DNA of 57,479 bases, filler included, from Sphacelaria rigidula (taxonomy: Eukaryota): NCBI GenBank assembly GCA_964200075.2. It is 8 parts of 8 records of this genome, joined end to end, with 100 filler letters (N's around TTAATTAATTAA, not from the genome) between each part and the next. Parts side by side here need not be neighbours in the genome. Positions count along the whole stretch, not along the records: positions 1 to 7,098 come from CAXNAA020016495.1; 7 more parts are not named here. One strand, 5' to 3'. The position numbers were made by a program, and so were the translations under genes. How positions within the stretch are numbered: position 1 is the stretch's first letter; each line of letters opens with the position of its first letter. Of this stretch, positions 1-52,272 are shown one piece after another. The notes beneath the pieces are model-generated. The model saw nothing but the letters and a program-made list of their open reading frames with translations. It was not told where the DNA came from and did not search any database.

Positions 1-1038
1 CTCTACTTCTCCAACTCCTCGCGACGTTAACACGCCCTGAACTGGTCTCGTTTGCTGCAAACTGATCAGGCCTGCAGACTTCCCTATCTTGAAATGTCAG
101 CTGCTTTTCAGCGAAACTACCGCCTCAGCGGACTGAATGAACGTTCATTATAGACCTCTGTCAGTCAAGATCAGATTGCCATGTGGACTCCTCCCATCAC
201 GGGCACATGGACTTCAGCAGCTTTAGTTATTTATGTATTAACCCTCAGCATAGTACAGGAAAACAGGACCATATAGCCTCTCTCCACCAGAGTAACAAAA
301 CCGGCTGTACTCGTCATGGAGATCACCATCACAGAGTCCGGCAATCAGACCCGCAAAGTCCCTGACCTTAGGTAACAATGGTGGCTAGGTCTACAGACCT
401 ACCTTACGGGCTCATTTGGGAGGCCGAGTTTTTCGGGGTAAATTGTAGTAGCCTGGAGTTCGAAGCAACAGCAGGGTTACGCCCTACCCCGTCAGCACCG
501 TGCATTCCGTTTTTGACTATTGATAGCCCCCGACGTGCCGCCCAGGATATACTCTCTGCCCTGGACCCGCTCAAGAATGCCCGTTCGCTAGTCACGCCTT
601 CCCCTGTGCCTTGTACGTTCCCCAGTTACAGCGACGTTGCCTGGGAAGACGGCGGCACGAGGGAGTGGAGCGTGAGGCTGGCCGTGCGTTCCGTCTCCAT
701 CGATGGGTTCATAAGTATGGCGGTGGAAACGGTGATTATGGGACCCCAACCGCAGGACAAGCAGCTACTTCTGATGCTACCCTTGGCTTAGTACGATCTA
801 GACGGTGAAGCGTTGGTAAGGATAGCCAAATGAGTGTTATGATGGATGCCAGGGTTTCTGGTTTACTGCGAGTTGGTAAACAGAGGTAAAGATGGGGCCG
901 AAGTGAAAACCTCCGGGACAATCGCGCGCTTGATAGCCCTTAACGTGCGCGATTCTGCTCGCTTTCACTCCCTTTTCGACGACACGCCGTCAATAGTAGA
1001 CCAACCTACCTTGCCCGCACCCCCTTGGTGCTCCGAGA

Positions 1039-1551
1039 GTGACCAACTACACTCAGAACCCAGCCAGGTCCGGGTATCGGGTGCAAACATGGGACAACTT
1101 GGGGAAAGCAGAGAAGGCGGAACTTGTGCGCGTACTACGGGATTTCGTGAAAGCAGGATTGTTTCCCACGGACCCCAAGCGGGTGCCAGCCTGCATCAAT
1201 GGTGAGCTAGAATTGCCATTGATGGACGAATCTAGCACACCCTTCGCCGCGGAACGACGCCATTTCTCGCCGGACGAACGCCGAATGATCAGAGAAGAAA
1301 TTCATAAGCTTCTTGACCGCAACGTTGTCCGCCCCTCAACTTCCCCCTGGGCCGCGCAATGTCTTTGTGTCAAAAAGAAGAATGGTACCTTGCGCCTGTG
1401 CATCGACTGGCGCGCTCTGAACAAGCGTTTAGTGTCTACTAGCGGTGGGCTGGGTGATATGCAGTCTGTATTTGATGGTCTCAAAAGCAAGAGATACTTC
1501 ACGCAACTAGATCTCGCCTCAGGATTTCACCAAATTGAGATCGCTGAGAAG
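1039..1551 (+). pseudogene. Gypsy reverse transcriptase N-terminal fragment
   Basis: ORF 1039-1605 carries IREEIHKLLDRNVVRPSTSPWAA, LRLCIDWRALN and LDLASGFHQI. Similarity stops abruptly after QIEIAEK (~1551) and no YxDD is seen, implying an internal deletion. Confidence 0.9.
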
Positions 1552-1707
1552 GTCTGGATGCCTTCGTGGAGCAGCGCAGATAAGACCTCAAAGAGGTACG
1601 TCTAGCTCTAGAGAAGAGGCACACCGCGAAGGAATCAACTCGTGCGAAAATAACCGTCTCTTTCATGAGACCCTCACCCGGAGTGTGCTAGAGAAGGAGA
1701 TCTGGTC

Positions 1708-2421
1708 ATGGTACACGAATCAGACAGCACGATACACCGGGACGGTAAGGGTAGGCAACTACAACACGAAAGGTATACAGGGCCCTGGAGAGTGAAAGAA
1801 GTACTGATGACGGGCCTCAGTGTAGAAGTAGTCATGCAAGGTCATAGACGTTATACACGTAGGTTAGCCGTCTCGGAGATGAAACCCCGTCATGTTCGTC
1901 CACCACACCTTAGGCACTCAATAGCTGACGGGTTTGCTCAACACGTGTGGGGTACAGATTGGAAGGCCAACACCACTCCTCCTCATAATCACGAATTCGT
2001 CACCTTGGTGGATCGTCGTGAGATCTACTCCATGACAGGCACGAAGCAGTGGGAATATGAGGCGAGATCTTCGAGGTGGGAGGTATCAGACTGGTTGCCC
2101 GAGAGCCAGCTTCGAGACAGTTTTTCTCCTTTGGAACTGGACGCTTTCCACGCACTCTGGCACCTATACCACCCCGCAGTTGCACCCAATCCGCCCTCGC
2201 ACTCGAAGAAGCGCCCCGCTCCTCTGACAAGCAGTGACGCCTTGAAGGTATTTCCCATAGGTGTTACCTTCTGGAAAGACTTTGGAGGTGTTAAGGTCAA
2301 AGGTTAGGTATATGACTACGAGAGCCGCTTTTGGCGAGTACCATGCGAAGGCGGAGACTGGGAGGAGCTATCCCGCCCGGAACTAGAGCGCTTAACGCGG
2401 GAAAAGGGACACCGACGGTAG
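1708..2421 (+). pseudogene. Gypsy integrase C-terminus with chromo-like and Tudor-like domains
   Basis: GPW motif (RYTGPWRVKEV) and chromo-like TLVDRRE...WEYEAR...SDWLPESQL. Reading through TAG at 2305-2307 gives FWKDFGGVKVKG*VYDYESRFWRVPCEGGDWEELSRPELERL, ending at TAG 2419-2421. Confidence 0.7.
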
Positions 2422-2529
2422 ACTGCAGCGAAAAGGGACACCGACTTTGGACTGCAGCGGGGACGTTAAGGAGTGGTCGTTGTTTGGGATGGTACAGGAT
2501 ATCACTGCACGGGGAAGGTGCTTGTAAAA

Positions 2530-3125
2530 TAAACGAAACAAAAACTGCCACTGTCAGTGTGCCAGTCGACCATACACTCACCCGTAGCCATTGCACTACG
2601 CGTGGGCTGTGATAGATTGCAACGTTCTGGTGATATTCCGGTAGCCGATATGATGCTAGGATATAGCGAGTTGTAGTCCAGGTAGATGACATTGCTAGCA
2701 ATCATGGGCCTATCGAACAACAGTTGACCGCCTGCTATGTTGTCGATGTAGCTCGATGTAGGCACCCATGCGATGTCCCTGCCGGTGAACCGGAAAGCTC
2801 CACTAGCGAGTGCACATGATCCGATGATGCCCGTGTTATATAAGGCAACCTCCACGAACGGACATCTAGCCTCTATACACGTCGACAGTATACTCTCGAC
2901 GATGCGTCTCTTCTGACACAGTTCGAGAACTATCTCACAATCTCGCACATTGTACCTCAACAGCTGACTGTAGCTCTCGGCTGTCACATTGTAGTCAAAG
3001 CTCGATCTATCTGCCTTACCTGCCATACCCTCTGCCGTTGCTAGAGCCTCGAGTGAGAACGATGTGAACTGGGCCTGCATAGTTGAACTATACCATACGA
3101 GCGTATCTACATTGTTAACCCCCGG
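2530..3125 (-). pseudogene. Family B DNA polymerase fragment (late exonuclease domain to motif A), virus-like or Pol II-like
   Basis: Uninterrupted intronless frame PGVNNVDTLVWYSSTMQAQFTSFSLEALA...YNVRDCEIVLEL (ExoIII YxxxD)...IAGGQLL...VIYLDYNSLYPSIISATGISPE (motif A DxxSLYPS). Confidence 0.9.
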
Positions 3126-3128
3126 TAG

Positions 3129-3275
3129 AGGACCATATCGTTTGGTAAGCCACAGGAAGCCGTCGCGTCCATGGTCTGCACCAGCATGATGTACAGGAGG
3201 GAGCTAGCTAAACAGAACGGAGATGTAGATCTCGCCTGGTCGATGAAGATAGTCGCCAACAGTGTAAACGATACA
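3129..3275 (+). pseudogene. Family B DNA polymerase fragment (fingers/motif B), opposite orientation to the preceding piece
   Basis: RTISFGKPQEAVASMVCTSMMYRRELAKQNGDVDLAWSMKIVANSV matches the R...K...KxxxNS fingers motif. The YG of NSxYG reads ND here. Confidence 0.75.
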
Positions 3276-3470
3276 TTGCTAGTACCATACTTTTCAGTCA
3301 TGAATTGCGAGTGTCCTGTTTTTGCGACTTGCGAGTGTTCCTGTTTCTTTTGCTCATTCTTTCAGGGTGTTTTGCTGGTACCATACTATTCAGTCATGAA
3401 TTGCGAGTGTCCTGTTTCTGTGTCTTGCGAGTGTTCCTGTTTCTTTTGCTCTTTCTATTCGGGTGTTTTG
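3276..3470 (+). repeat. 96-bp tandem duplication
   Basis: TTGCT(A/G)GTACCATACT(T/A)TTCAGTCATGAATTGCGAGTGTCCTGTTT... starts at 3276 and again at 3372. Confidence 0.9.
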
Positions 3471-4445
3471 GCCTTGTCTGGTTCCCATTTGTGGCATACA
3501 AGTACGTGTATACCTCTCTTCTCATTTTTATCGTTTTGATCATAGTTGTTTCCCATTTTCGTAACATACGAATACATGTGTGAGCCAAGGCGCGTGGGCT
3601 CTATTCCCAGCAGCATAGACGCCAGTAGCTACAGAAGAGCACCCCTCAAAAGCTGCACTCCTGTCCCTATTGATGAGTTCGTGGAAAGGTAGGTATTAGC
3701 AAATCCAACCAACGTTGGATGTGGTTCAAGCCCCGCACTACCCCGGAATCCAGTGTAAGTTATCCGGGGTATCGACGCGCGATTAATCTAACTAGCCAAT
3801 CATTCTCCAGTCTAACTGGGATCCAGGGAAGATGACAGTGACCGTACTTGTCTGCTGTTTCTGTCGTTGGAAATGGCGCCATGGTTTTTTCCTTTCCTAA
3901 CGGATAGGGTTTTCTCCTGCCCAACAAGGTTTACCTATCCATTAGATACTGAGTTTTCCCCTGCACTGTTGATTTGCATGCTTTTCTCGCTTCATTACTC
4001 AGGGGTCGATCCATAGGCTTCGTTTTTCCGGCCCTTCCAGCCCTCAACATACTTTTTGTTTAGCCTTATATATAAGGCTGGGGGGACGTTCCGAATTTAT
4101 TCGTTATTTTCCAGTCGAGTAGATCCCATGTGTCATTCTTTTTCTATGTTTACAGTAGTTCGAAAGGTCATGTGCCATTTTATAGTCTGCGTGATTTCTG
4201 GTCAAGATATGACCCCCGGGCTTTCAGAGTCTCTTGGGAGGTACAAGTACAACAGCCATACATGAGGATAGATTTTCGTAGTGAAATGTGGAAATCAATC
4301 AATCAGAGGCCCTTCAGTGAGGAATCGGCTGAGTCTAGGGCCGATGAAATGCGACGTTCGTAGTGAATTATGTAGTGAAANNNNNNNNNNAGTGGGTCAT
4401 TGCGATGCTCGTGTATCGGTATAATCCAATCTTAGTATGGCCAGT

Positions 4446-5052
4446 TTCGTCTTTCCGTGACCGTGAGCGCTGGCGCCGATGCCAGCGGCAGCAGCCGCCG
4501 TGCTGACGGGTGCAAGCAGTATAGTACCCTGGCGGTGCAGTATATCCGCACTGGGCTGTGCGTTGCTCCTTTGATCGGAACACGGGATCTGGTCGAAGCC
4601 GGTCGAGCGGTGTATACCGGCGCTGGTTGTGTGTCACCCAGCCATGTTCGGCATCGCGCAAGTGATGGGTCCGGGTCAGATGAACTTTTCAACAGACAGT
4701 CCAGTCAAGTGTGTATACCGCACTGGTCCCGACTGATGCTATATTTTACAGAGAGATGAACCATACAGTACCTCAAGCATTCTCAGCGGAGACCAAACTG
4801 TGTTCGCAAGGTCTATACACACCATCGAACAGTGATAGCTACAGCACATGTGAGACCGGACGTGAGAGTGTTTGTGCTGCAGTGCAGTGAAACAGGAGAT
4901 GTACCATGTTTTTGTGTTAATTCTTCGGTTGATTTTGAGCTGAGTCCTCAGTGTTCGCCGGGTGTCGATCTTGAACGCTCGAACATAACGGCGCTTGGCG
5001 CAAATAATTGCATTCATTACAAAATCATCCCCATGTATGGGTGCTGTGCCTC
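4446..5052 (-). repeat. ~600-bp repeat unit, inverted copy of 5865-6496
   Basis: Colinear reverse-complement similarity, e.g. GTACCCTGGCGGTGCAGTATATCCGCAC vs GTGCGGATATACTGCACCGCCAGGGTAC. Confidence 0.85.
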
Positions 5053-5079
5053 TTGGGAACTGATGTCAAGCCACTTTAG

Positions 5080-5620
5080 CAGCTACTAGCCTTTTCGCCG
5101 TAATACAAGCAGCATCTATGCCACCTCCGGACTGCGATATCAGAAGTGTCTCTGGTCTTCTTTTGATGTAAGCCTGATCTCCCTACAAAGGATACGGTTC
5201 TAACATCCTTGCTGGCCGAGTGCATTGCCAACCGACTGTATGAACATCTGTTGACTCCAAGACCTGTAAGTCCAACTCGAGCGAATCGATACCCTTGGAG
5301 TCCGCTGAGCACGACTGCGCGGGTGCCCACCTGACCAAGACATTTTACCCCTAGACGGTGACCATCGATTCGTGACATGGTGACCAATCCGAGAACCGAA
5401 CTCTGGTTTCCACAGCTTCACGGTTGGGGGGAAGACAAGGGCAGGCCGACCAGCAAGGCGCCTATAATACTGTATCACGGACTACTGCTCGTACTTCGGA
5501 ATAAATGCGACATCGTGGCAGCAGGTTGTTGCCCAAGATGTGTCCGAACGGTCCCGAGCTGTAGAGGACGGGGCTAACATGTATATGGCAGTCTGGACGA
5601 AAGCACGCCACGCTAAGGGA
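5080..5620 (+). mobile_element. Degenerate 3' end of an RTE-like non-LTR retrotransposon
   Basis: Frameshifted PRTELWFPQLHGWGEDKGRP / CITDYCSYFGINATSWQQVVAQDVSERSRAVEDGANMYMAVW resembles the RTE ORF C-terminus (GRP...FGI...W...AQD...VEEG). Confidence 0.6.
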
Positions 5621-5864
5621 CTTTTTGCTGTGCTACTACTAGAGCTCCCCCAGTGCTTACCGAGGACCTCCAAAAAGTAACCAGTAGTCCATCGGGTGGC
5701 ACAGTCACTAGTACATCTACGGTCTTTCCGAACAGCTGTGGTGGTGGTCTATGAGGGTGCGTGGGGTTGTTTATACGCACGTGGCCACTGGGGTGCCTGG
5801 AGGGTGACATTCTGGACCCTCCAGACCCTCCACAAGGTAGGTTGTCGTGGAGGGTCAGAAAGTT

Positions 5865-6496
5865 GCAGCATGACGGCTGCTGCCGTTGGCATCGGCGCCA
5901 GCGCTCGCGGCCACGGAAAGACAAGGCACAGGAGCCATACATGCGGATAGTTTTGTAGCAGATAAAGTTATTTGCGCGAAGGGCAATTATGTCCGAGCGC
6001 TCAAGATCAGCACCCTGCAAACACTGAGTGCTCGTTCGAAATCAGCTGAAGGTCTAAAACATGGGACATGTCTTGGCTCACTGTACTGCAGCACAAACAC
6101 ACTCACTCCCACTCTCATGTGCTATAGCTATCACTGTTCTGGGGTGTGTTCAGACCTTGCGAAGACGGTTTGGTCTCTGCTGAGATTGCTTGATGTGCTG
6201 TATTGCTGTGTTCGTCTCTCTGTAACCAAGCTGTAACATATGGTATCAGTCAGGACGCAGTGCTATCTACACACTTGACTGTTGAAAATTCCAAATTTCA
6301 TGTTATCCGGACCCATCACTTGTGCCATACCGAGCACTGCCGGGTGAAGGCACGCAACCAGCACCAGTATACACCGCTCGACCAGCGGGGCCAAACCCCA
6401 TGCTCTAATGAAAGGAGCGACGCACAGCACTGTGCGGATATACTGCACCGCCAGGGTACTGCTTGCCCCCGTCAGCATGACGGCTGCTGCCGTTGA
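5865..6496 (+). repeat. ~610-bp satellite-like monomer
   Basis: Starts and ends with GCATGACGGCTGCTGCCGTTG, i.e. slightly more than one tandem unit. It is an inverted copy of 4446-5052. Confidence 0.8.
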
Positions 6497-6844
6497 CAAG
6501 AGAAGCTGATGCATACTGTATACAGTCCGTCTTCAGGTTCCAGAAAAACAAAACACTGCAGAACTGCCATGTTGTCTCGTGTTCTGTGTAGTACTCTGCA
6601 CTCTATACACCACTGCACATTTATCTCGTTTTCAGTGTACTACATTGTACTCTATATAATGGCATCATGGTTCGAGCAGTTCGTCGAAAAGTTCTCCTTG
6701 TTTTTTCAAAAGTTCTCCTTGTTTTTTCAAAAGTTCTCCTCGTTTTTTTTCAAGTATTCCTAAAAAAACGAGAGTGTTTCCTGTCACCGAAATCTAATGC
6801 CGAATCTGGAATAGCCTGACACAACAACCAATTTGAAAATTGGA

Positions 6845-7028
6845 ATAATAATAATAGTCATAATGACCATGATCACAATAATCATCGTCCTCATCATCAT
6901 AATCATAATCATCATCATAATCATGATAATCATAATAATCATAATAATCATAATCATCATAATCATCATAATCATAATAATCATAATCATAATCATAACA
7001 ACAACAACAACAACAACACAACAACAAA
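6845..7028. repeat. Compound (ATC/ATA)n and (ACA)n microsatellite
   Basis: Directly visible trinucleotide repeats. Confidence 0.95.
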
Positions 7029-7098
7029 CAGCCGATCCTATTCTTTGGGGTTGAAACATAATATGAGGTTGAAGTCCCATCCCTCCATTGCAGGGAAG

Positions 7099-7198
7099 NN
7101 NNNNNNNNNNNNNNNNNNNNNNNNNNNNNNNNNNNNNNNNNNTTAATTAATTAANNNNNNNNNNNNNNNNNNNNNNNNNNNNNNNNNNNNNNNNNNNN
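7099..7198. other. Artificial scaffold linker N44-TTAATTAATTAA-N44 (also at 14297-14396, 21495-21594, 28692-28791, 35889-35988, 43086-43185, 50283-50382)
   Basis: Identical 100-bp spacer with stops in all six frames, recurring every 7197-7198 bp. Confidence 0.98.
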
Positions 7199-7237
<39 letters not shown>

Positions 7238-7272
7238 CATAATCGTAAACATTTGTTCGACCCGGCGAGCAG

Positions 7273-7437
7273 GCGACGGACTGGTGGCCGCACGACACTT
7301 GTGGCACTTCGGCTACCGACCAACGTGCCTGTACCCCAAGCCGACGAACAAGCAGCTGTTCACCAACCTCGTGGAGCAGTGCAAACAGCTCGGCGTAGAT
7401 TTTCTGCCCTCGTGGCCCGGAGGGGAAGCACTACCAG
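7273..7437 (+). CDS. NAXE: NAD(P)H-hydrate epimerase (YjeF_N), internal exon; upstream exons off scaffold
   Basis: (G)DGLVAARHLWHFGYRPTCLYPKPTNKQLFTNLVEQCKQLGVDFL continues the GNNGGDG motif. CAG acceptor at 7270-7272, GT donor at 7438. Confidence 0.9.
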
Positions 7438-7514
7438 GTACGCGCGCGAAATATGGTAAGAGGGTGATGAGGAACGGGGTGTTACTGCCGTTTCCATTTG
7501 TACTGCAGTTTTCG

Positions 7515-7573
<59 letters not shown>

Positions 7574-7589
7574 GATGTTGATGTTGTTG
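7515..7589. repeat. (TTG)n microsatellite, intronic
   Basis: Directly visible. Confidence 0.95.
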
Positions 7590-9659
7590 CTGTCTTGATA
7601 TTAAAAAGGGTTCCGATATCTGCGCAGTGCTCTGTACTGGGCATCTGATGCGGATGACTTCCGTGGTCACATGCTATCTACCCCGAAACAGGGTTGAAAA
7701 CAAATCGAACACGGAAACATTCACACAGACGCGATACAACTCCCCTCCCCCGAATAATAAAAAAAATCATAAAAAAGAAGACGAAGGAAAACAAATACTG
7801 CTAGCCTCCTGAGTTCCGATGCCGTATGCGATCATTCGGGATACTAGGGGCAGGGCCCATTGGTCCACTGAACACGCGAAGCCAAACAGGAAGGGAGCCA
7901 ATCTCAGGGACCAAGGTCACCGACCATAGCGATAAGAATTGCAGGGTTCTATCCTTGTACTCCTAGAGGGATAGCCATGTGTACGAATTTACTAGGCATA
8001 ACAGGAAAAGCAGTGCAAACAGTTTTCGGCTGCAGACGCTCAACGGAGTACGTAGTACTCCAAAGGGTTCACCCGTCGTGTGGTAGAGGTTTGGTGGAAG
8101 CCGAGTACGAAACATTCTGGGTGGACCAAAGGCTTGTCTTGATACATGCAGAGATGTGTGTACGTATACTTGTAGCCATGAGACGATTCATGGCTGTGTT
8201 GCCAAACTACGCATGGTCTCCGGCGGTAACGGCAAGGGTGCTCTGGAAGTGCGATTCAGCAGAGCGCGGTGGTTCGGGATTGTGTGGTGAAGAATCGAAT
8301 CTCTGTAAATGCCCAAAGTTTGCGCACCCTTCCATTTCCCTCAGAGCGTCCCCGTATTTTTTCGGCGTAAAATCCTCAGCAATATTTACCTTTTGAGGGT
8401 ATTGCTTTTTCTGTTCCCAGGATTGTCGTGATTTGTCGTCACGTGTCATATTCTATGCATTACCCCTCGTGTTCGTGTGCTTGCTTGTTTTATCATGCGT
8501 ACGTGCTCTTCGCCACACGCTGCGGCGGGGCTTCTTACGTCATTTTGGGGCATTGGTTGATCGAGTAATCCGAGTTATGTGTTGCATCGCACGCCAAAAG
8601 TGATCCGCTACGCGTGAAGCCGTGGTTTGAGTAGCAGAAATAGATGTACATACCCCAGGTACGAGTGCATAATCGGATAGACATCGTTGGAGGAAACTCG
8701 AGAAAAAGTGCTGAACGTAAAGATGAACAAAAAAAGAGGAGAAGGAGACAAAGAACGGAAACAGAAAAAAAAAGGGAATAGAAGAACAAGGAACATAATA
8801 GACTAAGATCTGACTTTTAGTGCTGAGAAGATACCCGATAGCCAAAGGGTCCCGCCAGGACGGGAGATGAGGAGGCCGTACAAGAACCAAGGCTATGAAA
8901 GCAAGGTGTGACTCGGCTATTATATTTACAATTAGAATCCATTTTGTGGGAGCGAGACACGAAACGCTGATTCGGCTCCGAATTGAATGTAAAAGGGTGG
9001 GGTGGGGGGGGGCAGGAGACAGGAACGGAAATGTAGAAAAAGTGACGGGGGGGAGGGCGAAGAGCAGAAAATGAAGAAAGGGAAAAAAAGAAGACCCCGA
9101 GAGATAGATCAGAACATGAAGAGGACACACAGATGGCAGGAAATATAGCTGAAGTTGCAAGCGAAGGGAATGATTCGACAACCGTTGGGAAAAAAACAGG
9201 GGTATCAGCTTGTTGTGTGCAATCCCTGCCTGCCCCCCGTACCTCTGGCCAGGATCATGACTGGACAATCCCCTCGATCATCTCTATCTTGGATTCCTCG
9301 CGGGCTGTTGTTGCGGTTGTTTGTACCACCGGTGGCGACTCTCCCACGGTGGCTCTCAGCGCAGCAGCCTAGTGTTTTGCTACGGAGCTCTGCTTGGCGT
9401 AGATCTTCGCGGCGCCCCACCACCTCAACCCTCCCCCCCCTCCCTTCTCAACAGTGGTGGCCACAGACGGTGAAACAAGACGGGGATAAGATATGTAAAA
9501 GGTTTTTGTGTATCGTACGGAGGAGGCGTAATGAGTGCCGGAATGTTGAAGGTGGCTCTATTAGGAGTAGGAACGGTGCTCCGTCTCGAAAGGGATGCGT
9601 AGTCAATTGTCAAACGACGAAAGCAAGCAACAAATGAGTACGCGCTCAACACCTAAGCG

Positions 9660-10165
9660 TCATTTGCCGATGTTTCAGCGCAGGGACCCGGTATTGCGAC
9701 TCTTTGACATCCATAAACCACTTCCTTTGTTCTCCCTCACGTCATGTAGCCCCACAGGGCATGTAGGGCGGTCTGCCCAGTGTTTCAAAGGTCGATCAGG
9801 CAGCGTGGACCCTCGTGCGACTAGCCGTCCGAACGTGATACGCTCCGGTACACGAGATTCGTCCTGTCGGGCAAGGGCCCTCGCAAACCAAAGTTGTCTC
9901 GATACGATCGTAACTTTGTATGAAGGAGTCTTGTGTCCACTGCGATCCTTTCCACGGAAGCCAGCTACTCGCAGTAAAAGCTTGTGGCTGGCAGTGTGCA
10001 GCCTCTCGGCGTCCTTTGGGCGCAGCGTCCGTGTAGGACAGCAGATCCGTAGGGTATACTTGACACCACATCCGCTTTGAGCAGCCTGAGGTTTAGCGAT
10101 AGCTGAGTATTGGGGTGACCGTGGAGGCGCGAGATAGATTTCCGGAGGCGCATTCATGCAGCGCT
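9660..10165 (-). mobile_element. Degenerate 3' portion of an RTE-like LINE within the NAXE intron
   Basis: LNLRLLKADVVSSIPYG / LHTASHKLLLRVAGFR / ARQDESRVPERITFGRL...DRPLKHW resemble the RTE post-RT region. Frameshifted. Confidence 0.75.
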
Positions 10166-10401
10166 GATGCGGCGTGCGTGTCGATGGAACTGTTCTCGTC
10201 TACGTTCACGACACCACCAACGTGGACAAACTCGCCCATTTACCGCTGGCGTTTTCTAAACGTGAAAAGTCTTTTTCCAAAGAAAACAAAAAGAGGGGGC
10301 AACGTGCCGCTGTTGCTTTCGTGCTAAAGTGTTGCACAATGTCAAGCTCTGAAAAATTATTCTCCGAAACGCACGCCCATCCCCTCCCCTTCCCCCCCCA
10401 G

Positions 10402-10585
10402 CCTGATCCGGCGAGAACCCGGCGTGCTCCGTCCTGGCTTTGTAGGGGCGGACCCCGATGGGGGTGGCGCCGGTTGACGGTGACGCTATCAAACACGCCA
10501 CTCACTGCGGAAGCTAGGCAACCAGGTTGCCGGTGTTGTTTGCGCGCTTACGGTTTTTCTTGCGGTAACCATGATGTTAGTCGAG
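10402..10585 (+). repeat. Dispersed repeat, GGCGAGAACCCGGCGTGCTCCGTC head with long tail (second copy 21312-21494)
   Basis: Near-identical to 21312-21494 through ...GGTAACCATGATG(T/G)TAGTC. Confidence 0.85.
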
Positions 10586-10869
10586 CTAGATCATGTTGTG
10601 CGGCGTGGGAAAACCTCAACTCCGCACAATGGGGATGATCGTACTGCGTAGTGTTGAAATGGCGAGACACCACATCAGGCAGTAGAAGCCGTGGCTGTCT
10701 CTGGAAGTGGCGATACCACAAACTGAAGCAATTCATTGTAGGCTGTCATCCAAATACAAGATAACCAGTTGGCTTCGGGCCGAACAATCTTAGTAAGATG
10801 CAGCTCACCCACCCTTCATGTGACTCGCCGAACACACCACGGAGCTTCGCGCTTGGTGAATGAGTGCGA

Positions 10870-10966
10870 GCCTGGTCAGGCGAGAACCCGGCGTGCCCTG
10901 TCCGGGCTTCATAGGGATGCGAGGTCAATGTTCCTATGACTATGTCATGCATGATCATGAGTACCC
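10870..10966 (+). repeat. Dispersed repeat, same head with short CATGATCATGAG tail (copies 28492-28582, 35835-35888 minus, 43186-43253)
   Basis: GGGATGCGAGGTCAA...ATGACTA...CATGCATGATCATGAG is shared among four scaffolds. Confidence 0.85.
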
Positions 10967-11078
10967 TTCCCCCCCCTCAAAAGAGAATGTACACCGCCAA
11001 AAACGTGTGCTGTAAATTTACGGCTGAAGAGAGTATGATAGGGTAATAGAGTCTTTGCGCGGTAAATTTGTGATGCAG

Positions 11079-11218
11079 GCAGCTACGACGTAGTCCTCGA
11101 CGCGATGTTTGGCTTCGGCTTCAAGGGAGCACCACGGCCTCCGTTCGACACTATCCTCGCAGATCTCGCGCGAGGCAGCACCCCCGTAGCGTCGGTGGAC
11201 GTGCCTTCCGGTTGGTCG
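11079..11218 (+). CDS. NAXE: NAD(P)H-hydrate epimerase, internal exon
   Basis: SYDVVLDAMFGFGFKGAPRPPFDTIL...PVASVDVPSGWS contains the DAxFG and DxPSG motifs. CAG and GTGAGT boundaries are phase-compatible with the neighbouring exons. Confidence 0.93.
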
Positions 11219-11656
11219 GTGAGTGTCAAAGCCCCGTGTACCGTATGTAGAAATATAACAACATCCGTAGGTGAGCCGGCGTGGCAGTAACACCGGATAG
11301 ACAATACCTGCAGGTGACCTGATTGGTTGATTGGTTGTCGTACATTAACTGCTCCCCGAGTGATCCAGGCTTAGTCATTATCCACAGGAATACACATGGC
11401 AATTCCGATTATGCAAGAGAGTCTCCGACGGTAACCGAATCGTATCATGTGCGTATGACGTCCAGCACTCGTACGCTGAATATCACCCCCTGAACATTAC
11501 TCATGGGTGACCGGTTTTTGGCTGTTCCTGTCACCCTGCCAGTATCCCCAGTACTGTAGCGACTCGTGTTTGCTGCCGCAGGATGGGCTTTTTCTACAGT
11601 CAATAATTTTCTGTTATTGTGCCTTTGCCGTGGCGCCACTCCTTATATGGTACCAG

Positions 11657-11736
11657 GTAGACGAGGGCGATCCGCAGGGAGACGGAATCAAACCTGACAT
11701 GCTCATCTCTCTTACAGCTCCCAAGCTTAGCGCGAG
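11657..11736 (+). CDS. NAXE: NAD(P)H-hydrate epimerase, internal exon
   Basis: VDEGDPQGDGIKPDMLISLTAPKLSA(R) contains the eukaryotic NAXE signature PDMLISLTAPK. Confidence 0.93.
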
Positions 11737-13354
11737 GTACGTACTGCTACAGCATGAGGTCGCCCGGTTGTCGAGGTTTTGTGATCGTGCTTCACTAAGT
11801 TCGCACCAGCGCAAATTTGAACCCTCTCCAAAACTCAAATGTCATCGGTGCTACTGTATCGTAGAAAGACATCTGGTACTTGACATGCTCCGCCCGTGAC
11901 CTACGTGCATTTAAAACGCCGTTGTATTTTCACGTGTACTACTGAAAGCAGTCACTAAAAATGCGTGACGAAGAGGAAACGTGGTCTGGCTCGGGAAGCG
12001 CTCAGTACAACCCAATAGCTTTCCGAGGTATCATCAGTTCTTCATGCATGACACCCTTGTGTGGATCTTGCACTCCCTCATATACGCAGTGCATTCTTTG
12101 TTCCCCTGCACTCTCATGCCTACACCCAGTATACGTGCGGTACAGTAGTACAGTATATGACTGAGTGATGCTACGGTAGAGGTGTACAAACATTTTCCGA
12201 GGTTAGAATTGTTAGGAGACCTTCATCTCATCCAAAACAATACTCATTAAGTACGTGTAAGAGTACGCCAAGATGGCTATCCCAATGTGCTAGGGAAATC
12301 CCGAAGGAACTTGCAAGCGGGGATGCCCTGATCCGTATTCTTGTGCATCTAGAATCGTTAGGAGCCCTCGAACCAGACACGATTTTGCGCAACACGTGCA
12401 CCCCTATTGTAGCATTGCTCGCCTCTGAGCATCGAATCAATTATCGACGCAACGCGTAGCCTTGCTGGAGCACTGTATTGTACACCCATTTTGTTCGATG
12501 GTATTGGTTAATGGGTTCTCTCACATTAAATGGCCCGCCCACGAATCCAGCCGCGGTCGGGAGATATATTTACCACGACAAGGTGAAATCGACGGGAACA
12601 TTCGTCAAACGAACGAAAGTCGAAGAGGAGAGAGAACAAAGCGAAAAGGTGAGTAGAAAAAAATACAATGAAAAAATTAACGTTACAACCTACATCTTCG
12701 CCACACTATCCGATCCGACCGCGCTGGCCCGTACGCCTCAAAATTGAATACATTTTCTCTTTCTTTTTTTTTCCCCTCTTCCCGTCAAAGTCTCAACCCC
12801 ACCCACTTCCCGGGAGGAGTCGAGTGCGTTGTCTCGAAGGAACAAGCCATCTCTCTCTCTCTTTCTCCCCCGGCCCACACGCGCCTTACATTTCTTGCAT
12901 CGAGGATTGGATCATGACGAACATTCTAGCGCCGCGTCGACTCTCTTCGAATGAAAACTTTCTTTTGCTCCTATTAATGCTCACTTCTTCACGTTTTCAA
13001 CAGCGGGAAATATGATGCTTCTTTTCAGCACAAGACACAACAAAACGAAGCGAAGCGAAACGAAACGAAACGAAACGGAACGAAACAAATGCATCTGCCG
13101 ATAATCGAACCCTCCGCATTCAGCCTTGACAAATTTCTTTGAACTTGTGCCGGTCAGACGATCGACGTGCGGTGGTACATCGGCAGCTTATTCAGACAAA
13201 AATAAAGCACCGGACGGCACACTACTGTAGCGTTTGCCGTTCTAAATATGGAATACGCCGAAAAAGATCCAGATACGCCCCGCTGCTGATGGTGGGGGTG
13301 AACTTTGGTGAAAAAATTGACATGCCGCGGTGCAATATGTACGCATTCCTACAG

Positions 13355-39300: not shown

Positions 39301-40705
39301 GATCCAAGACGGGTCTTGGGCATTGCAAAACGCTGCCCTTTGTGTTACCCTCTAACCCGGCGTCTCGCCGATCTCTTCTTGACCATACCGAACAAACCCA
39401 ATCCTTACCAAGAAGGTTGGCGCCATCTTGGACGCGTATTTGGGAGCGGAACAAATACAACAACCCTCCTTTCCTTGGGCCTCGCCACTTGTGGTCGCCC
39501 CAAAAAAGAATTGAAACATACGCAAAACCGTGAATTATCGACGGTTGAATCGCGTCACTGTGGTTGGTAAATTTCCAATTCCCCGCACCGATAAAGTCTT
39601 CGACTCCCTAGGCGAAGGAATAATATTCAGCACCTTCGACCTCGCTTCTGAATTTTTTCAGCATGCTATACACCGTGAAACAGTCCCACTGGCTGCTTTT
39701 TGCACCTCGTCCGGACTATACGAGTGGCTTCGAATGCCACAAGGCGCCGCCACTGCCCCGAGATGCCTTTAACGCTAGATGCAACGCGTCACCAAGGGCC
39801 TCGAGCACATCATCATGTACCTAGATGATGCTATCGCTTTCGATGCTTCAGTTATTGCACATATCCTTTACGAGAATTTCTCTTTCGCCGACGCACACAC
39901 GATTTGAAATTGTCGCCATCCAAAGCTCGCCTTGGTGCGACTGACTTGGATTTCTTAGGGCATCCATTTCGCCACCAGGGCTACATCCGGATTCAAACAA
40001 AGTCAAGACGATGACTGACTTGCCGATGCTAACTAACATTTCTCAACTTCGCTCATTGTTGGGCGGACTATCCTCCTACCACAAAGTCTTGCCGAATTTG
40101 TCTAAACGGATTCGCCCCCTTGCTGAGTTACTCAAAAAAAGAGCCGTGTTTACCTTCTTAACCGATGTGTAGAATATCACCCGCGAATTGCTCAAGACGT
40201 TCACCGAAAATCTGGTACTCTACTTTCCTGATTAGGAGGCAGTACAAGGTGGCTCTCGCCTTTTCCAACTCCACACTGACGCCAGCACAAACGGATTTGG
40301 AGGAGTTTTGAATCAACCTCAGGTTGATGGCTCCGTCCAACCCATCCTCTATATCAGCCGCGCCACTCCGCCGAACGAGGCCACTTGGAGCCCGCTAGAA
40401 CTGGAAGGCGGAGTAATCACCTGGGCCATTAAGCGCCTTCGACAACATCTGTTCCACGTGCCCTTCCAGATCTATACGGATCATGGAGCACTCGAACAAC
40501 TCGCCAAGGTTGGCGAACACAACCCACTTGTACAACGATGGTTGGAGTTTCTAACAGCATACCAGTATACCATCAAGCACCGTCCAGGCAAAGCCAACGG
40601 GAACGCTGATCTTCTTTCTCGACTACCCCTGCCGCCTACGGCCACAGATTCCAGGCCGGCTTGCCATTTAACGGAACCCGATGAACCTGGAATTTACCCG
40701 ATTAG
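36370..40705 (+). mobile_element. Degenerate Ty3/gypsy retrotransposon internal region (gag-like, protease, RT, RNase H; integrase not seen)
   Basis: Protease LSLLNSGSPRTFI (D>N) and AILLGRD. RT NYRRLN...FPIPR...FDLASEFFQ...YEWLRMPQG and MYLDD (~39815). RNase H LHTDAS...YISR...LELE...IYTDH...RWLEFL...HRPGKANGNADLLSR. Many stops and frameshifts; boundaries approximate. Confidence 0.9.
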
Positions 40706-41949
40706 ACGTTTTTTAACGCCCGTTTACGCTCTCGACCTCAAGTGCCCAGAAACTGGCATTGTGATGAAGCTCAGAGGCGTTGCAAGATATACTCTGTGCG
40801 GGTCTGCTCGTAGACCCTGGATTCCGTGACGCGTTGTTACCGCGTTTGCTACTGTCATAAGTTAGGGTTGTTTAGCCGCGGCCCCACGCAGCGGTCCCCC
40901 TTCTTGATCAGTTGCTGCCCTTGCCGTGGTCTACCCTGGGCCATCACTACGCTCTGCTTCTATGGCTGCCCTGCGGCTGTACTGAGTAAGAGAGCTGCTT
41001 GTAGATAAAACATGATGCTAAGCAAACACGTGAGTTCCTTATCAAGAGTCTGAACATGAATGAACCTACATTGTGATAAGTCAAGAGAGGATAGCTAGGT
41101 CTGTATGAGTTTGCCCACGTGGGAGCTTGGTGAGGCTGACACCATGGTATCTCCCGGCACTCATACTGATAGACCCCAGCCACTGCATTAGCTACTTTCT
41201 TTATTACATTGATCGATAGCCAACGGCATCCACAGCCCCCGGACGTCTGAACATGATGACGTCGGGGGGAGTAGATTTTGGTATTTCCAGCAGACTGTGT
41301 TGGGAAGAGAGGAAAATTTCTCGGGAGTTTATTCACCGAACAAAGCATAACATCAACAAAGGCGCTTGCACGCAGGTTCCGGATTGGTCGAAAAAATGTC
41401 GCTTGCTCTCATCGACAGAGAACACTCCACTATGTATGTGTAGTATCCCTAGACAGCTTCGTAACTCCTTTGCGTGATAGATGGGATGATTGATCATCGA
41501 CTGAATGGTTGATTGTCACGTATTAGCTGATTCTCGTTGTCACCATGCACAAGATAAACGTACCCAAGGACAGCAACACCGAAAGAGTCGCTTTAGGAAA
41601 CTCGAGAAGAGACAACACAACGTGGGGAGGAGCAAAAAAACATTATGCTTCAACCAAATGGAGTGAGACCTGCAAGGGCGGAAGGTTCTGGATACGATTC
41701 CCGGGGTACGTATACATCCGATTCATTTTTTTAGGAGTTCGTGATTTCTCGTCGTTGAAGACTTGAGGACGTGAGGAGCGAAGAAGTTTCTATGACGTGG
41801 GGTCGACCCGCTGCGGGAATCGTGCTGATCCACTCAACGACACCACAATGTAAGGGATGCTGTGGAGGGGTGATGCGCCGATTCCTTTAAACCTCGCCCA
41901 TAGGTGGGGGAGGGATTGGAACTGTGACGATGTATATATAGTTACATAG

Positions 41950-50211: not shown

Positions 50212-51483
50212 TATACTTCCTCTGTCCCATAAGTCTGTATCGTTATGTTTATACGAGCCCTTAACGATGTCCGATTTGATTTNNNNNNNNNNNNNNNNNN
50301 NNNNNNNNNNNNNNNNNNNNNNNNNNTTAATTAATTAANNNNNNNNNNNNNNNNNNNNNNNNNNNNNNNNNNNNNNNNNNNNAGAGGGGTAAAAGATATT
50401 TATTATGAGGGTTATTTTTGTTTATTATAATAGTAGGTCTAAAGAATAATTGACAAAAAAAAAGTGGTTCATTTTTTTTTTTTTCATTTTTTTTCACTGG
50501 TTTAGGGCGTTCTACTAGGGTAAGTACCATATTTCTCGAGAACGCCCTAACCTCTATGAAAAAAAGAAAATGGAAGGCCCATACGTATTTTTTTCGGCAC
50601 TCTATTGTGGTTCTCCACACCAAAAATTGTCGCCATCCGCTAAATGCATCGATCAGGAGTTTCATAGAGATTTTAGTATTTTTGGCACTATCTCCCTTAG
50701 GTATAATAGGAATGACTAGACATGGGGTTTAATCAACGAGAAAATATGGGCCCAAACTTTTGAACAGATGGGCACCTTCCCCTTGATTAGACGATTAATA
50801 CCATATGCGGATCGCGGCCCAACTCGTCTGTGTCGATGATGAGATATTGCTTTTAGAGCTTAAATTCGTTTTTAGGCTGGCCCAGCTCGTATTTTAGTAC
50901 AATAATGCTTTGCGATGCCATTTGAAATTGTATGATCACAACCCGGCCGGATAACAGATTGCGTTGACAAAAATGTACTACGCTCAGTATCAAATATGTT
51001 GTCCTATAATTAATCTGAGATTGATTTGATACTGTATGCAGTACACGTTTCGCCAATGAATGTTGTCTCTCGTCCAGGGTGTGACGATGGTTCAGGGGTA
51101 CACGCCCCCATCAGCGGGCCTGACCAACACATTTTCAGGGGAATATGGGAATATAAAAAATACCCGAAAATTTGAAAATTGCGGGAGGTGTTGAGAGGCA
51201 TCGTACTGCTAGCCAGGGTAAGTGTGGTTGCGGGCTTACAGCTTGAAGAAAATGAACGAAGGCAAGCACTGAACTTTCCTTCCTCTAACGAATCTTGTGT
51301 CGGTATTGGTTTGGTCTTCCACTACCGGGACACTGGAGCCATTTCTCAGTGACACATACAGACATCAGTTTCAAGGCCCCCTGTCTGGCCAAGACATTTA
51401 GTGCAACGGTAGTACAGTAGAGTTGGCCGTGGCACAGCACCTCACTGTATCATTGTACTGTTGTGCTCGGAACGCACAGAGTG

Positions 51484-51864
51484 ATGCCTTCACCATTGCA
51501 GACGGCGGAAATTCCTGACGCTGATGATGGCGCATTCACAGTATCCTCTTCCCTCCCGCCCATGGTGACGGGAGCTCTGGCGGGCGAGATGGAATTGTCG
51601 GTACCGTGCTTTTTCGCCAAGCCCGGAACGCTCAGACCGTCTAGGTACCTCCGTGAGCGCCAACATGGTCGCAGCCCGTTGTGTGCGGTACGAATACAAT
51701 GGTGGGGGGACGTTGGGCCCGGGACGGTGTTGAAACCGGACCTATCGGATATGCTCGATGAGAAAGGACAACGGGCGCGGAGTGCTGGCCTTTCCTCTGC
51801 GACTTGCGCGTTGTTTCCTGTTAGGTGTGGTCTCGAGGGCCTCGTCGCGTACCTCAAAGACATG
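51484..51864 (+). CDS. C2CD3: C2CD3-like centriolar C2-domain protein, first coding exon
   Basis: SSLPPMVTG...VRIQWWGD...GTVLKP...FPVRCGLEGLVAYLKDM parallels the animal C2CD3 N-terminal C2 as I recall it (SLPPLVEG...VRWWGE...YAIRCG...SYLTDM). GTGAGC donor. Confidence 0.8.
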
Positions 51865-52272
51865 GTGAGCTTCCGGAGATGCAGCAGTTTGTCAGATTGG
51901 ATAGCGACAGATTTTCCGCACCGACAGGTGGTGCATGTATTGGTTCACTTCAGTATCTACGCTCCTCGTGCATGCCTATGGGCTGTGCTGTCACGGAGCT
52001 GCAAACTGTAGCTGATGTATATATGGTAGAGCCCGCTATAGACACTAGTAGTATATTTTTGCCTGGGAGCATTTTTTCGCAGCTAACTGCTGACTACGAT
52101 GAATTACAGCACGTACATCTACTGTTCGGTACAAGTGCGGTCACTGGACTCACATTCTCTCAGACTGCAACTACAGCTACCGTGCAATCAATAGTCAGAC
52201 TATCTTACGCTCTCTTAATCAGTCAACCCAACGCTACGCATCTCCGCTGCCTACCCTCCCCCCCTCGACCAG

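Follow-up and report, generated by a model that had tools for sequence, protein, structure and literature searches.

The window analyzed here, a 57,479-nucleotide (nt) stretch of DNA from the alga Sphacelaria rigidula (assembly GCA_964200075.2; eight parts of eight records, joined with 100 filler letters between each part and the next), carries a 762-nt fragment of a family B DNA polymerase (PolB) gene located between the 3' end of an internally deleted Ty3/gypsy retrotransposon copy and other repeats. The fragment consists of two pieces standing head to head, one of them inverted. Its outer boundaries and the inversion junction recur in independent assemblies, and no further copy was found at a likeness of at least 80%. 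We regard it as probable that this is a dead single-copy relic that entered the algal nuclear genome horizontally from a rare, undescribed lineage of DNA viruses or virus-like elements. The locus would then be a small endogenous viral relic of a known kind, and it does not demonstrate the spread of viral sequence by a retrotransposon. Its value is that of a pointer, the polymerase clade to which it belongs being very rare among 1.84 billion protein clusters: the lineage of origin may be new, and the locus is ordinary.

The polymerase sequence is genuine. A stop-free frame of 233 codons runs along the minus strand (2502-3203), and 0 of 20,000 shuffles of the 639-nt PolB piece were still stop-free. 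In a PDB search this frame matched a T4-type polymerase (9e5y, E = 2e-7), Escherichia coli Pol II (E = 1.8e-6) and archaeal PolBs (E of about 2e-4), and it also matched PHROG 262 (E = 2.5e-15). The Pfam match to PF00136 (E = 8e-5) reached 22 bits, just below the 23-bit cut-off, and covered residues 167-199, the motif A stretch, which was likewise the stretch matched by the PDB chains. A first-pass annotation of this DNA had described an intronless PolB segment of about 200 codons with ExoIII and motif A, and these matches bear it out, on the minus strand. There, ExoIII (YNVRDCE) lies at 2934-2954, with its Y, N and D in invariant columns of the clade alignment, and motif A (LDYNSLYPSII) at 2652-2684; the sequence FTSFSLE stands upstream of both.

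Motif B is present in part, as KIVANSV at 3246-3266 on the plus strand, and its YG is gone where homology stops. When 13 polymerases of the clade described below and a related polymerase from a metagenome locus (L001) were compared with the 57-kb window by tblastn (E < 0.05), matches were obtained from 3128 (-3173) to 2511 on the minus strand and from 3144 to 3266 on the plus strand. The clade proteins had no match outside these two pieces, and no further PolB piece with ExoI, ExoII, motif C (YGDTDS) or the thumb was found in the 57 kb. Because ExoI, ExoII and motif C, which a working enzyme needs, are missing from the window, the sequence is a fragment of the PolB family rather than a functional member, and as predicted from its motifs it cannot work as a polymerase. 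Its GC content (0.50) equals that of the host window (0.50). A putative RNA run (X6) yielded no contig on 2575-3276, a result with no bearing on expression either way.

Piece 2 (Table 1) aligned to residues 450-490 of one close relative, P0151 (46% identity, E = 1.3e-4, tblastn), and to residues 405-447 of another, P0002 (E = 1e-6, pairwise alignment). In the relatives, the stretches matching pieces 1 and 2 are consecutive in the protein, with a variable loop between them. Piece 1 ends with ...STFPVQ at 2505, and that position in the protein is the start of piece 2 (GKPQEAVASMVC..., at 3144). Since the two pieces follow the order of the protein but stand on opposite DNA strands, head to head, the arrangement is, as read from the sequence, an inversion whose breakpoints are 2504/2505 and 3143/3144; 639 nt, or 213 whole codons, are inverted. 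The motif-B piece that the first-pass annotation had placed after the PolB segment is thus present (3144-3266, ...KIVANSV), but on the opposite strand, the two meeting head to head at 3143/3144. Together, the pieces amount to about 255 codons and span roughly residues 172-447 of the 741-residue P0002. The size of the source protein would be roughly 700-950 residues.

Some further readings of this arrangement were tried and dropped. A PolB-like plus-strand frame just left of 2505 (...FGMVQDI) had support from neither tblastn nor Pfam. L1-type twin priming, which produces a pattern of an inverted 5' piece followed by a direct 3' piece, was rejected because neither a poly(A) tail nor a target-site duplication was seen. 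Reading by eye, we noted TGGTA...ACAGGA outside both breakpoints (2490-2504 and 3143-3159), in the same orientation; the pair may be due to chance or may be a trace of the rearrangement mechanism.

A search of 1,835,955,588 cluster representatives with the fragment gave 191 matches at E ≤ 1e-3, 36 at ≤ 1e-10 and 2 at ≤ 1e-30, the last being the window's own open reading frame (ORF), P0001, and P0002 (42% identity, E = 1.7e-39). The closest relatives were P0151 (687 amino acids [aa]) and P0002 (741 aa), which in a direct comparison were 40-41% identical to the fragment and both come from Logan or ENA contigs of 4-11 kb, together with a 280-aa fragment, P0003; all are unnamed. A protein search restricted to near-length matches returned only P0001, on a 902-nt contig, and the ESM Atlas only generic PolB clusters. 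Pattern scans retrieved no relative, either from IMG/VR (three PolB alignments) or from 185,579 prokaryote genomes (GTDB).

Two trees were built, a FastTree phylogeny of 85 rows (search matches P0002-P0099 of at least 550 aa, five short close ones, 11 further proteins and three locus proteins) and a quick IQ-TREE run (LG+G4) of 35 hand-picked rows; both comprised such proteins without named phaeovirus or mirusvirus sequences and without the host's own PolB genes. In both, P0002, P0151, P0003 and the fragment formed a clade of four rows (support 99 and 98), nested in a 15-row clade that includes the L001 polymerase (support 100 and 99). The 15-row clade was separate from a Pol delta so named by the Joint Genome Institute (JGI), from the JGI "elongation subunit" polymerases of about 1000 aa, from Salmonella Pol II and from cyanophage P-HM2 gp43. 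P0003, also in the 4-row clade, is a further truncated polymerase; over its last ∼45 residues all likeness to the family is lost, and it may be another decayed insertion in some eukaryote.

Among solved structures, bacterial Pol II, T4-type gp43 and archaeal PolB were the best matches in sequence and fold, and the fragment resembles them in its compact spacing between motifs A and B. They nonetheless share only 15-25% identity with our sequences, and both trees place them in clades of their own. For P0002, an AlphaFold model (predicted local distance difference test 74.3, predicted template modeling score 0.73) matched generic PolB folds only, the best in the PDB being KOD, African swine fever virus (ASFV) and Pol II polymerases at 15-18% identity. 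The top 50 BFVD matches to this model were 11-17% identical and included hytrosavirus, halovirus, ASFV, cyanophage, pithovirus, EhV-86 and HaV01 proteins. Among the named Nucleocytoviricota in this set, EhV-86, HaV01, PoV, PpV, pitho-, marseille-, pandora- and medusaviruses stood at 12-17%. Phage PolBs were 22-25% identical to the fragment. NCBIfam Pol II models gave 31.5-34.4 bits against cut-offs of 570-1435, so that the equivalog level was not reached, and a bacterial Pol II identity was discarded on these scores and on its separate clade. The likeness to Pol II-type or divergent double-stranded DNA virus polymerases suggested by the first-pass annotation therefore stands as far as the best structure matches (T4-type and Pol II) are concerned, but it is remote (22-25% identity, 31-34 bits). 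The suggestion of a foreign, divergent PolB rather than one of eukaryotic type agrees with the PDB matches and both trees. An origin in a divergent lineage, distinct from host, Pol II and T4-like polymerases and from those of the named viruses compared, appears well supported, and no named virus family is claimed for it.

A scan of JGI metagenomes gave three loci, and one of them provides a lead to that lineage. L001 comprises 12.9 kb (1-12855) of a compact, virus-like contig of 16,452 bp; genes lie densely on both of its strands, and its GC content is about 0.41. Besides its PolB, it encodes a compact protein resembling the RNA polymerase subunit Rpb2 (beta-like; Table 1). This Rpb2-like protein has 28 close relatives (P0267-P0294). 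Because 9 of these 28 lie on contigs of 15.2-16.5 kb, the data suggest that such contigs are complete genomes of that size. Three relatives carry a name: an MMETSP transcript, a scaffold of Attheya sp. (EukProt) and an NCBI "unnamed protein product [Scytosiphon promiscuus]," the last encoded on a 60-kb contig (32% identity, E = 1.5e-46). IMG/VR held no relative of the RNA polymerase protein in a pattern scan with one alignment. Kin of the gene are thereby placed in diatom and brown-alga data. Taken as sequences, these proteins point to a stramenopile-associated family of small DNA elements that has inserted at least once into the nuclear genome of a brown alga.

The source of the fragment could accordingly be sought, on weaker grounds than the relic itself, in an element of ∼15-16 kb that encodes a PolB plus a compact RNA polymerase of its own and lives in stramenopile hosts. 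A full-text literature search, in those parts of the texts that it covered, returned no description of the PolB clade or of 15-16 kb contigs combining PolB and RNA polymerase. The available parts of two reports (PMC13348850, PMC6211774) describe cytoplasmic virus-like elements of yeasts, pGKL2-type linear plasmids of ∼13 kb that encode both a DNA polymerase of their own and an RNA polymerase of a reduced multisubunit type. To judge from those parts, L001-type contigs, known here from genes alone, are alike in outline (15-16 kb, PolB plus compact Rpb2-like protein). In contrast to the pGKL2-type elements, the clade PolB matches the PF00136/PF03104 type, its match to PF03175 being weak and below threshold, and the hosts appear to be stramenopiles rather than fungi. 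We tentatively entertain, with the odds still against it, the possibility that stramenopile algae harbor a so far undescribed family of DNA elements or viruses, small (∼15-16 kb) and parallel to the yeast elements in having a compact PolB and a reduced multisubunit-type RNA polymerase; the fossil would then record entry into the nucleus and germ line of a multicellular or flagellate alga, possibly via a transcript taken up by a retrotransposon reverse transcriptase (RT). If the contigs are complete genomes, they would constitute a new group of eukaryotic DNA elements, very small and equipped with transcription machinery of their own, and the fragment would, if this is true, give such elements a host link and a minimum age.

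Copy number was assessed in public sequencing runs, 6 of 10 of which contained window positions 1900-4100 or part of them, with 4 containing at least half of the sampled words of that stretch. Contigs from four runs were aligned to positions 1-7000 at a likeness of at least 80%. Positions 2575-3276 were covered by one contig in run X1 and in run X3 and by two abutting contigs in run X4, and the summed depth there was that of the single contig (64.4, 23.7 and 13.4-13.9 for X1, X3 and X4, respectively). For comparison, the X1 contig identical to the window's own gypsy copy had a depth of 77.8, and single sister-copy contigs had depths of 59.5-68.1. Over 1-2574 and from 3277 on, the summed depth rose to thousands to hundreds of thousands; in X1 it was 3378 over 3277-3510 and 3258-11564 over the gypsy body, compared with 64 over PolB. 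Gypsy-level depth begins only at about 470, after another high-copy repeat. As the depth over 2575-3276 equals that of one contig, the PolB stretch is present once at a likeness of at least 80%. In the protein search, nothing lay between P0001 (100%) and the next match at 42%.

The same contigs span the junctions. Contigs of 902 nt cover 2419-3320 with 0 differences in X1 and 2 in X3, and in X4 two contigs together cover 2398-3320; at either end, the bridging contigs reach 56-85 nt into host repeat. All three junctions, the two outer ones and that of the inversion, are thus seen in three runs belonging to two studies; the window itself may derive from one of these runs. The contigs particular to this copy begin at 2398-2419 and end at 3320, from which we infer that identical sequence up to ∼2448 and from ∼3291 occurs elsewhere in the genome. 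Sister gypsy copies (∼85% alike) diverge from the window at 2379-2410. The joints seen were 15 of 362, and an empty-site joint (∼2500 to ∼3270) in sister copies may exist beyond them.

How the fragment arrived is less clear than what it is. Because its frame is intact, its size is sub-genic and no other viral gene lies in the 57 kb, it would have arrived as a short fragment and fairly recently; a large insertion that decayed later fits less well. In one route, a DNA fragment would have been end-joined into a break, part of it being turned round on that occasion or afterwards. In the other, RT would have switched templates onto a viral transcript while the defective retroelement copy was being reverse-transcribed. 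We lean slightly toward the DNA-break route because it needs no special assumption.

Several points weigh against this account of a horizontally acquired single-copy relic. The fragment stands right after a duplicated polypurine-like tract and in an internally deleted copy, a site that fits template switching at least as well as end-joining. The inversion breakpoint at 2504/2505 is the edge of the fragment too, a coincidence for which the account offers no explanation. Contig depth is not copy number, since contigs can lose rare variants and show presence better than absence, and copies less than 80% alike, or a lost 5' long terminal repeat (LTR), would escape detection. The link to elements of 15-16 kb is indirect and runs through a single contig, that of L001, with a PolB that shares only 32% identity with the fragment, and the GC content of the fragment (0.50) differs from that of L001 (∼0.41), which fits either a long residence or a different donor.

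Among the alternatives, the one that survives best is a one-off chimera of reverse transcription, in which a single error-prone cDNA would have left three scars: the PolB piece, the duplication of the polypurine tract and the deletion between RT and integrase. In animals, retrotransposons are known to have formed chimeras with exogenous viruses. The fragment has no introns and is smaller than a gene, it lies where the internal region meets the presumed LTR, beside a 29-nt tandem duplication, and neither the RT core nor most of the integrase is left in the copy; the site, a polypurine-tract/LTR junction of a defective Ty3/gypsy copy, is shared with LTR-captured gene fragments and retrotransposon-virus cDNA chimeras. 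An insert past the polypurine tract would, however, be expected in both LTRs, yet the depth is that of one copy, for which a lost 5' LTR would be an excuse. Moreover, no poly(A) or other RNA hallmark was found, and a colinear-but-inverted pair is unusual for a template switch. We therefore consider such a chimera rather unlikely, while giving it more weight than the explanations that follow.

The first-pass annotation had placed the PolB sequence inside the putative LTR of the retrotransposon, captured once and then copied with each retrotransposition. PolB does start ∼45 nt past a polypurine-like tract, where a gypsy-type pol remnant has its 3' end, the sequence between 2481 and 3566 has TGTT...AACA ends, and in X1 the depths of the right flank (3277-3510) and of the gypsy body are similar in order of magnitude. 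Fragments riding in an LTR occur in both LTRs and in daughter copies, whereas the PolB fragment was found once: in three DNA runs no other contig lay over 2575-3276 at a likeness of at least 80%, the depth there being that of unique sequence between multi-copy flanks, and none of the 1.84 billion representatives falls between 42% and 100% identity. Sister copies part from the window sequence before PolB begins, and the window holds no second LTR. No second copy of any part of 1-4400 was found in the window, which begins inside the element. The proposed ends (TGTT at 2481 and AACA at 3563-3566) amount to a 4-nt repeat only, and the polypurine-like repeats stop at 2458, 22 nt before TGTT. Carriage and amplification by the retroelement are very improbable. 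The alternative offered by that annotation, viral DNA patched once into this single putative LTR copy, comes close to the horizontally acquired relic that we favor.

A processed pseudogene or fragment of the alga's own alpha, delta, epsilon or zeta polymerase would likewise be intronless in an intron-rich genome and would share the GC content of the window. At E ≤ 1, however, no delta, zeta, alpha or epsilon polymerase chain in the PDB matched the fragment, while T4-type, Pol II and archaeal PolBs did, and the clade stands apart from the JGI-named Pol delta in both trees. The trees, structure matches and low identities together exclude the host-pseudogene and Pol II readings, and a host delta or zeta origin, which the first-pass annotation had marked for a check by phylogeny, hardly deserves further consideration. 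The same may be said of a chimeric assembly or contaminant, which N gaps and many repeats in the window might suggest but which is scarcely credible when contigs of three runs from two studies bridge 2419-3320 with 0-2 differences and host repeat on both sides. Domestication of the 192-codon ORF P0001 as a host gene with a new, non-polymerase role has in its favor an intact frame and a sequence with 0-2 differences in runs of three samples, but it is highly implausible for a product without ExoI, ExoII and motif C that stops within the palm domain, borders on an inverted part of its own sequence and has no known relative of this truncated form (the near-length search having returned only P0001).

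The relic may be compared with endogenous elements of large DNA viruses in algae, such as the Phaeovirus insertions in brown algae treated in the available parts of two reports (PMC11890097, PMC12993054). As far as those parts show, such elements likewise consist of foreign, intronless replication-gene sequence lying among transposons in an algal nuclear genome. Here, by contrast, there is one 762-nt sub-genic fragment, and Pfam detected no other viral gene among the 128 ORFs of at least 100 aa in the 57-kb window. Besides PolB, the Pfam matches among these ORFs were the RT piece, an RT-RNase H, a C2CD3-type C2 domain and a sub-threshold New_glue match.

Table 1. Features around the PolB fragment (window coordinates) and genes of the metagenome locus L001
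Feature	Location	Strand	Length	Remarks
PolB piece 1	2505..3143	-	213 codons	starts shortly ahead of the conserved PGxNN block, takes in ExoIII and motif A and ends at ...VDW...TFPVQ; corresponds to P0002 residues ∼172-385
PolB piece 2	3144..3266	+	41 codons	helix before motif B plus KIVANSV (3246-3266); likeness to family ends after ...NSV
Ty3/gypsy-type RT, N-terminal part only	1000..1602	+		match ends ahead of catalytic core; multi-copy in runs
Open frame continuing the retroelement	1669..2304	+	212 codons	multi-copy; ∼85% alike sister copies over 1551-2410
Purine-rich tandem duplication, polypurine-tract-like	2401..2458	+	29 nt (unit)	GAAAAGGGACACCGAC...; repeat family D2, 90% identity
Linker	2459..2504		46 nt	includes TGTT at 2481 (proposed LTR start)
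Two tandem units of a multi-copy repeat	3276..3467		96 nt (each)	repeat search and contig depth
Imperfect repeat pair crossing proposed LTR end 3566	3465..3600		∼68 nt	family D3: 3465-3490 / 3533-3558, 73%, spacing 68
Very high-copy repeat	3567..3980			summed depth ∼95,000-104,000 in X1 for 3511-3978
PolB of 15-row clade	L001		952 aa	32% identity to fragment
Rpb2-like protein	L001		833 aa	Rpb2 domains 6 and 7, HGQKG motif
TFIIS-like zinc ribbon protein	L001		637 aa	N-terminal ribbon, E = 0.0035, sub-threshold
P-loop protein	L001		530 aa	GPANIGKTT, read by eye; no family match
Three ORFs	L001			no matches

The gypsy copy on the left of the fragment is without the RT core and without most of the integrase. 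Its RT piece had as its best PDB match Ty3 RT (4ol8, E = 6e-15), limited to chain residues 69-165, and also matched residues 602-698 of the Ty3-G Gag-Pol polyprotein; the Pfam match to RVT_1 (E = 1.2e-4) was under its cut-off. The open frame that follows had no Pfam or PDB match and might be read as the integrase C terminus or chromodomain-like tail of an internally deleted copy. We also considered the linker as the start of a 96-nt unit, with the fragment inserted into one array, and dropped this reading when 1097 of 2000 shuffles reached the alignment score. On the right, the extension of the ∼68-nt repeat to about 3582 was read by eye from the sequence. Very high-copy repeats at 1-468, 3511-3978, 4447-4914 and 5851-6552 had summed depths in X1 of 1,500-8,000 times that of unique sequence, and a scan of window positions 1-8000 gave no Rfam or tRNA match for them.

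Farther away, a second retroelement remnant lies at 40236-40826 on the plus strand, with an RT-associated RNase H domain (PF17917, E = 6.6e-25); it shares no DNA likeness with the gypsy copy at 1-2400. Two host exons were recognized, both on the plus strand. The one at 7200-7598 encodes a YjeF_N piece of the NAD(P)H-hydrate epimerase type (E = 2.8e-5, just under the cut-off). The other, at 51421-52008, encodes a C2CD3-type N-terminal C2 domain (E = 4.1e-13); C2CD3 is a protein of centrioles and cilia, and the exon would suggest a flagellate life stage in the host.

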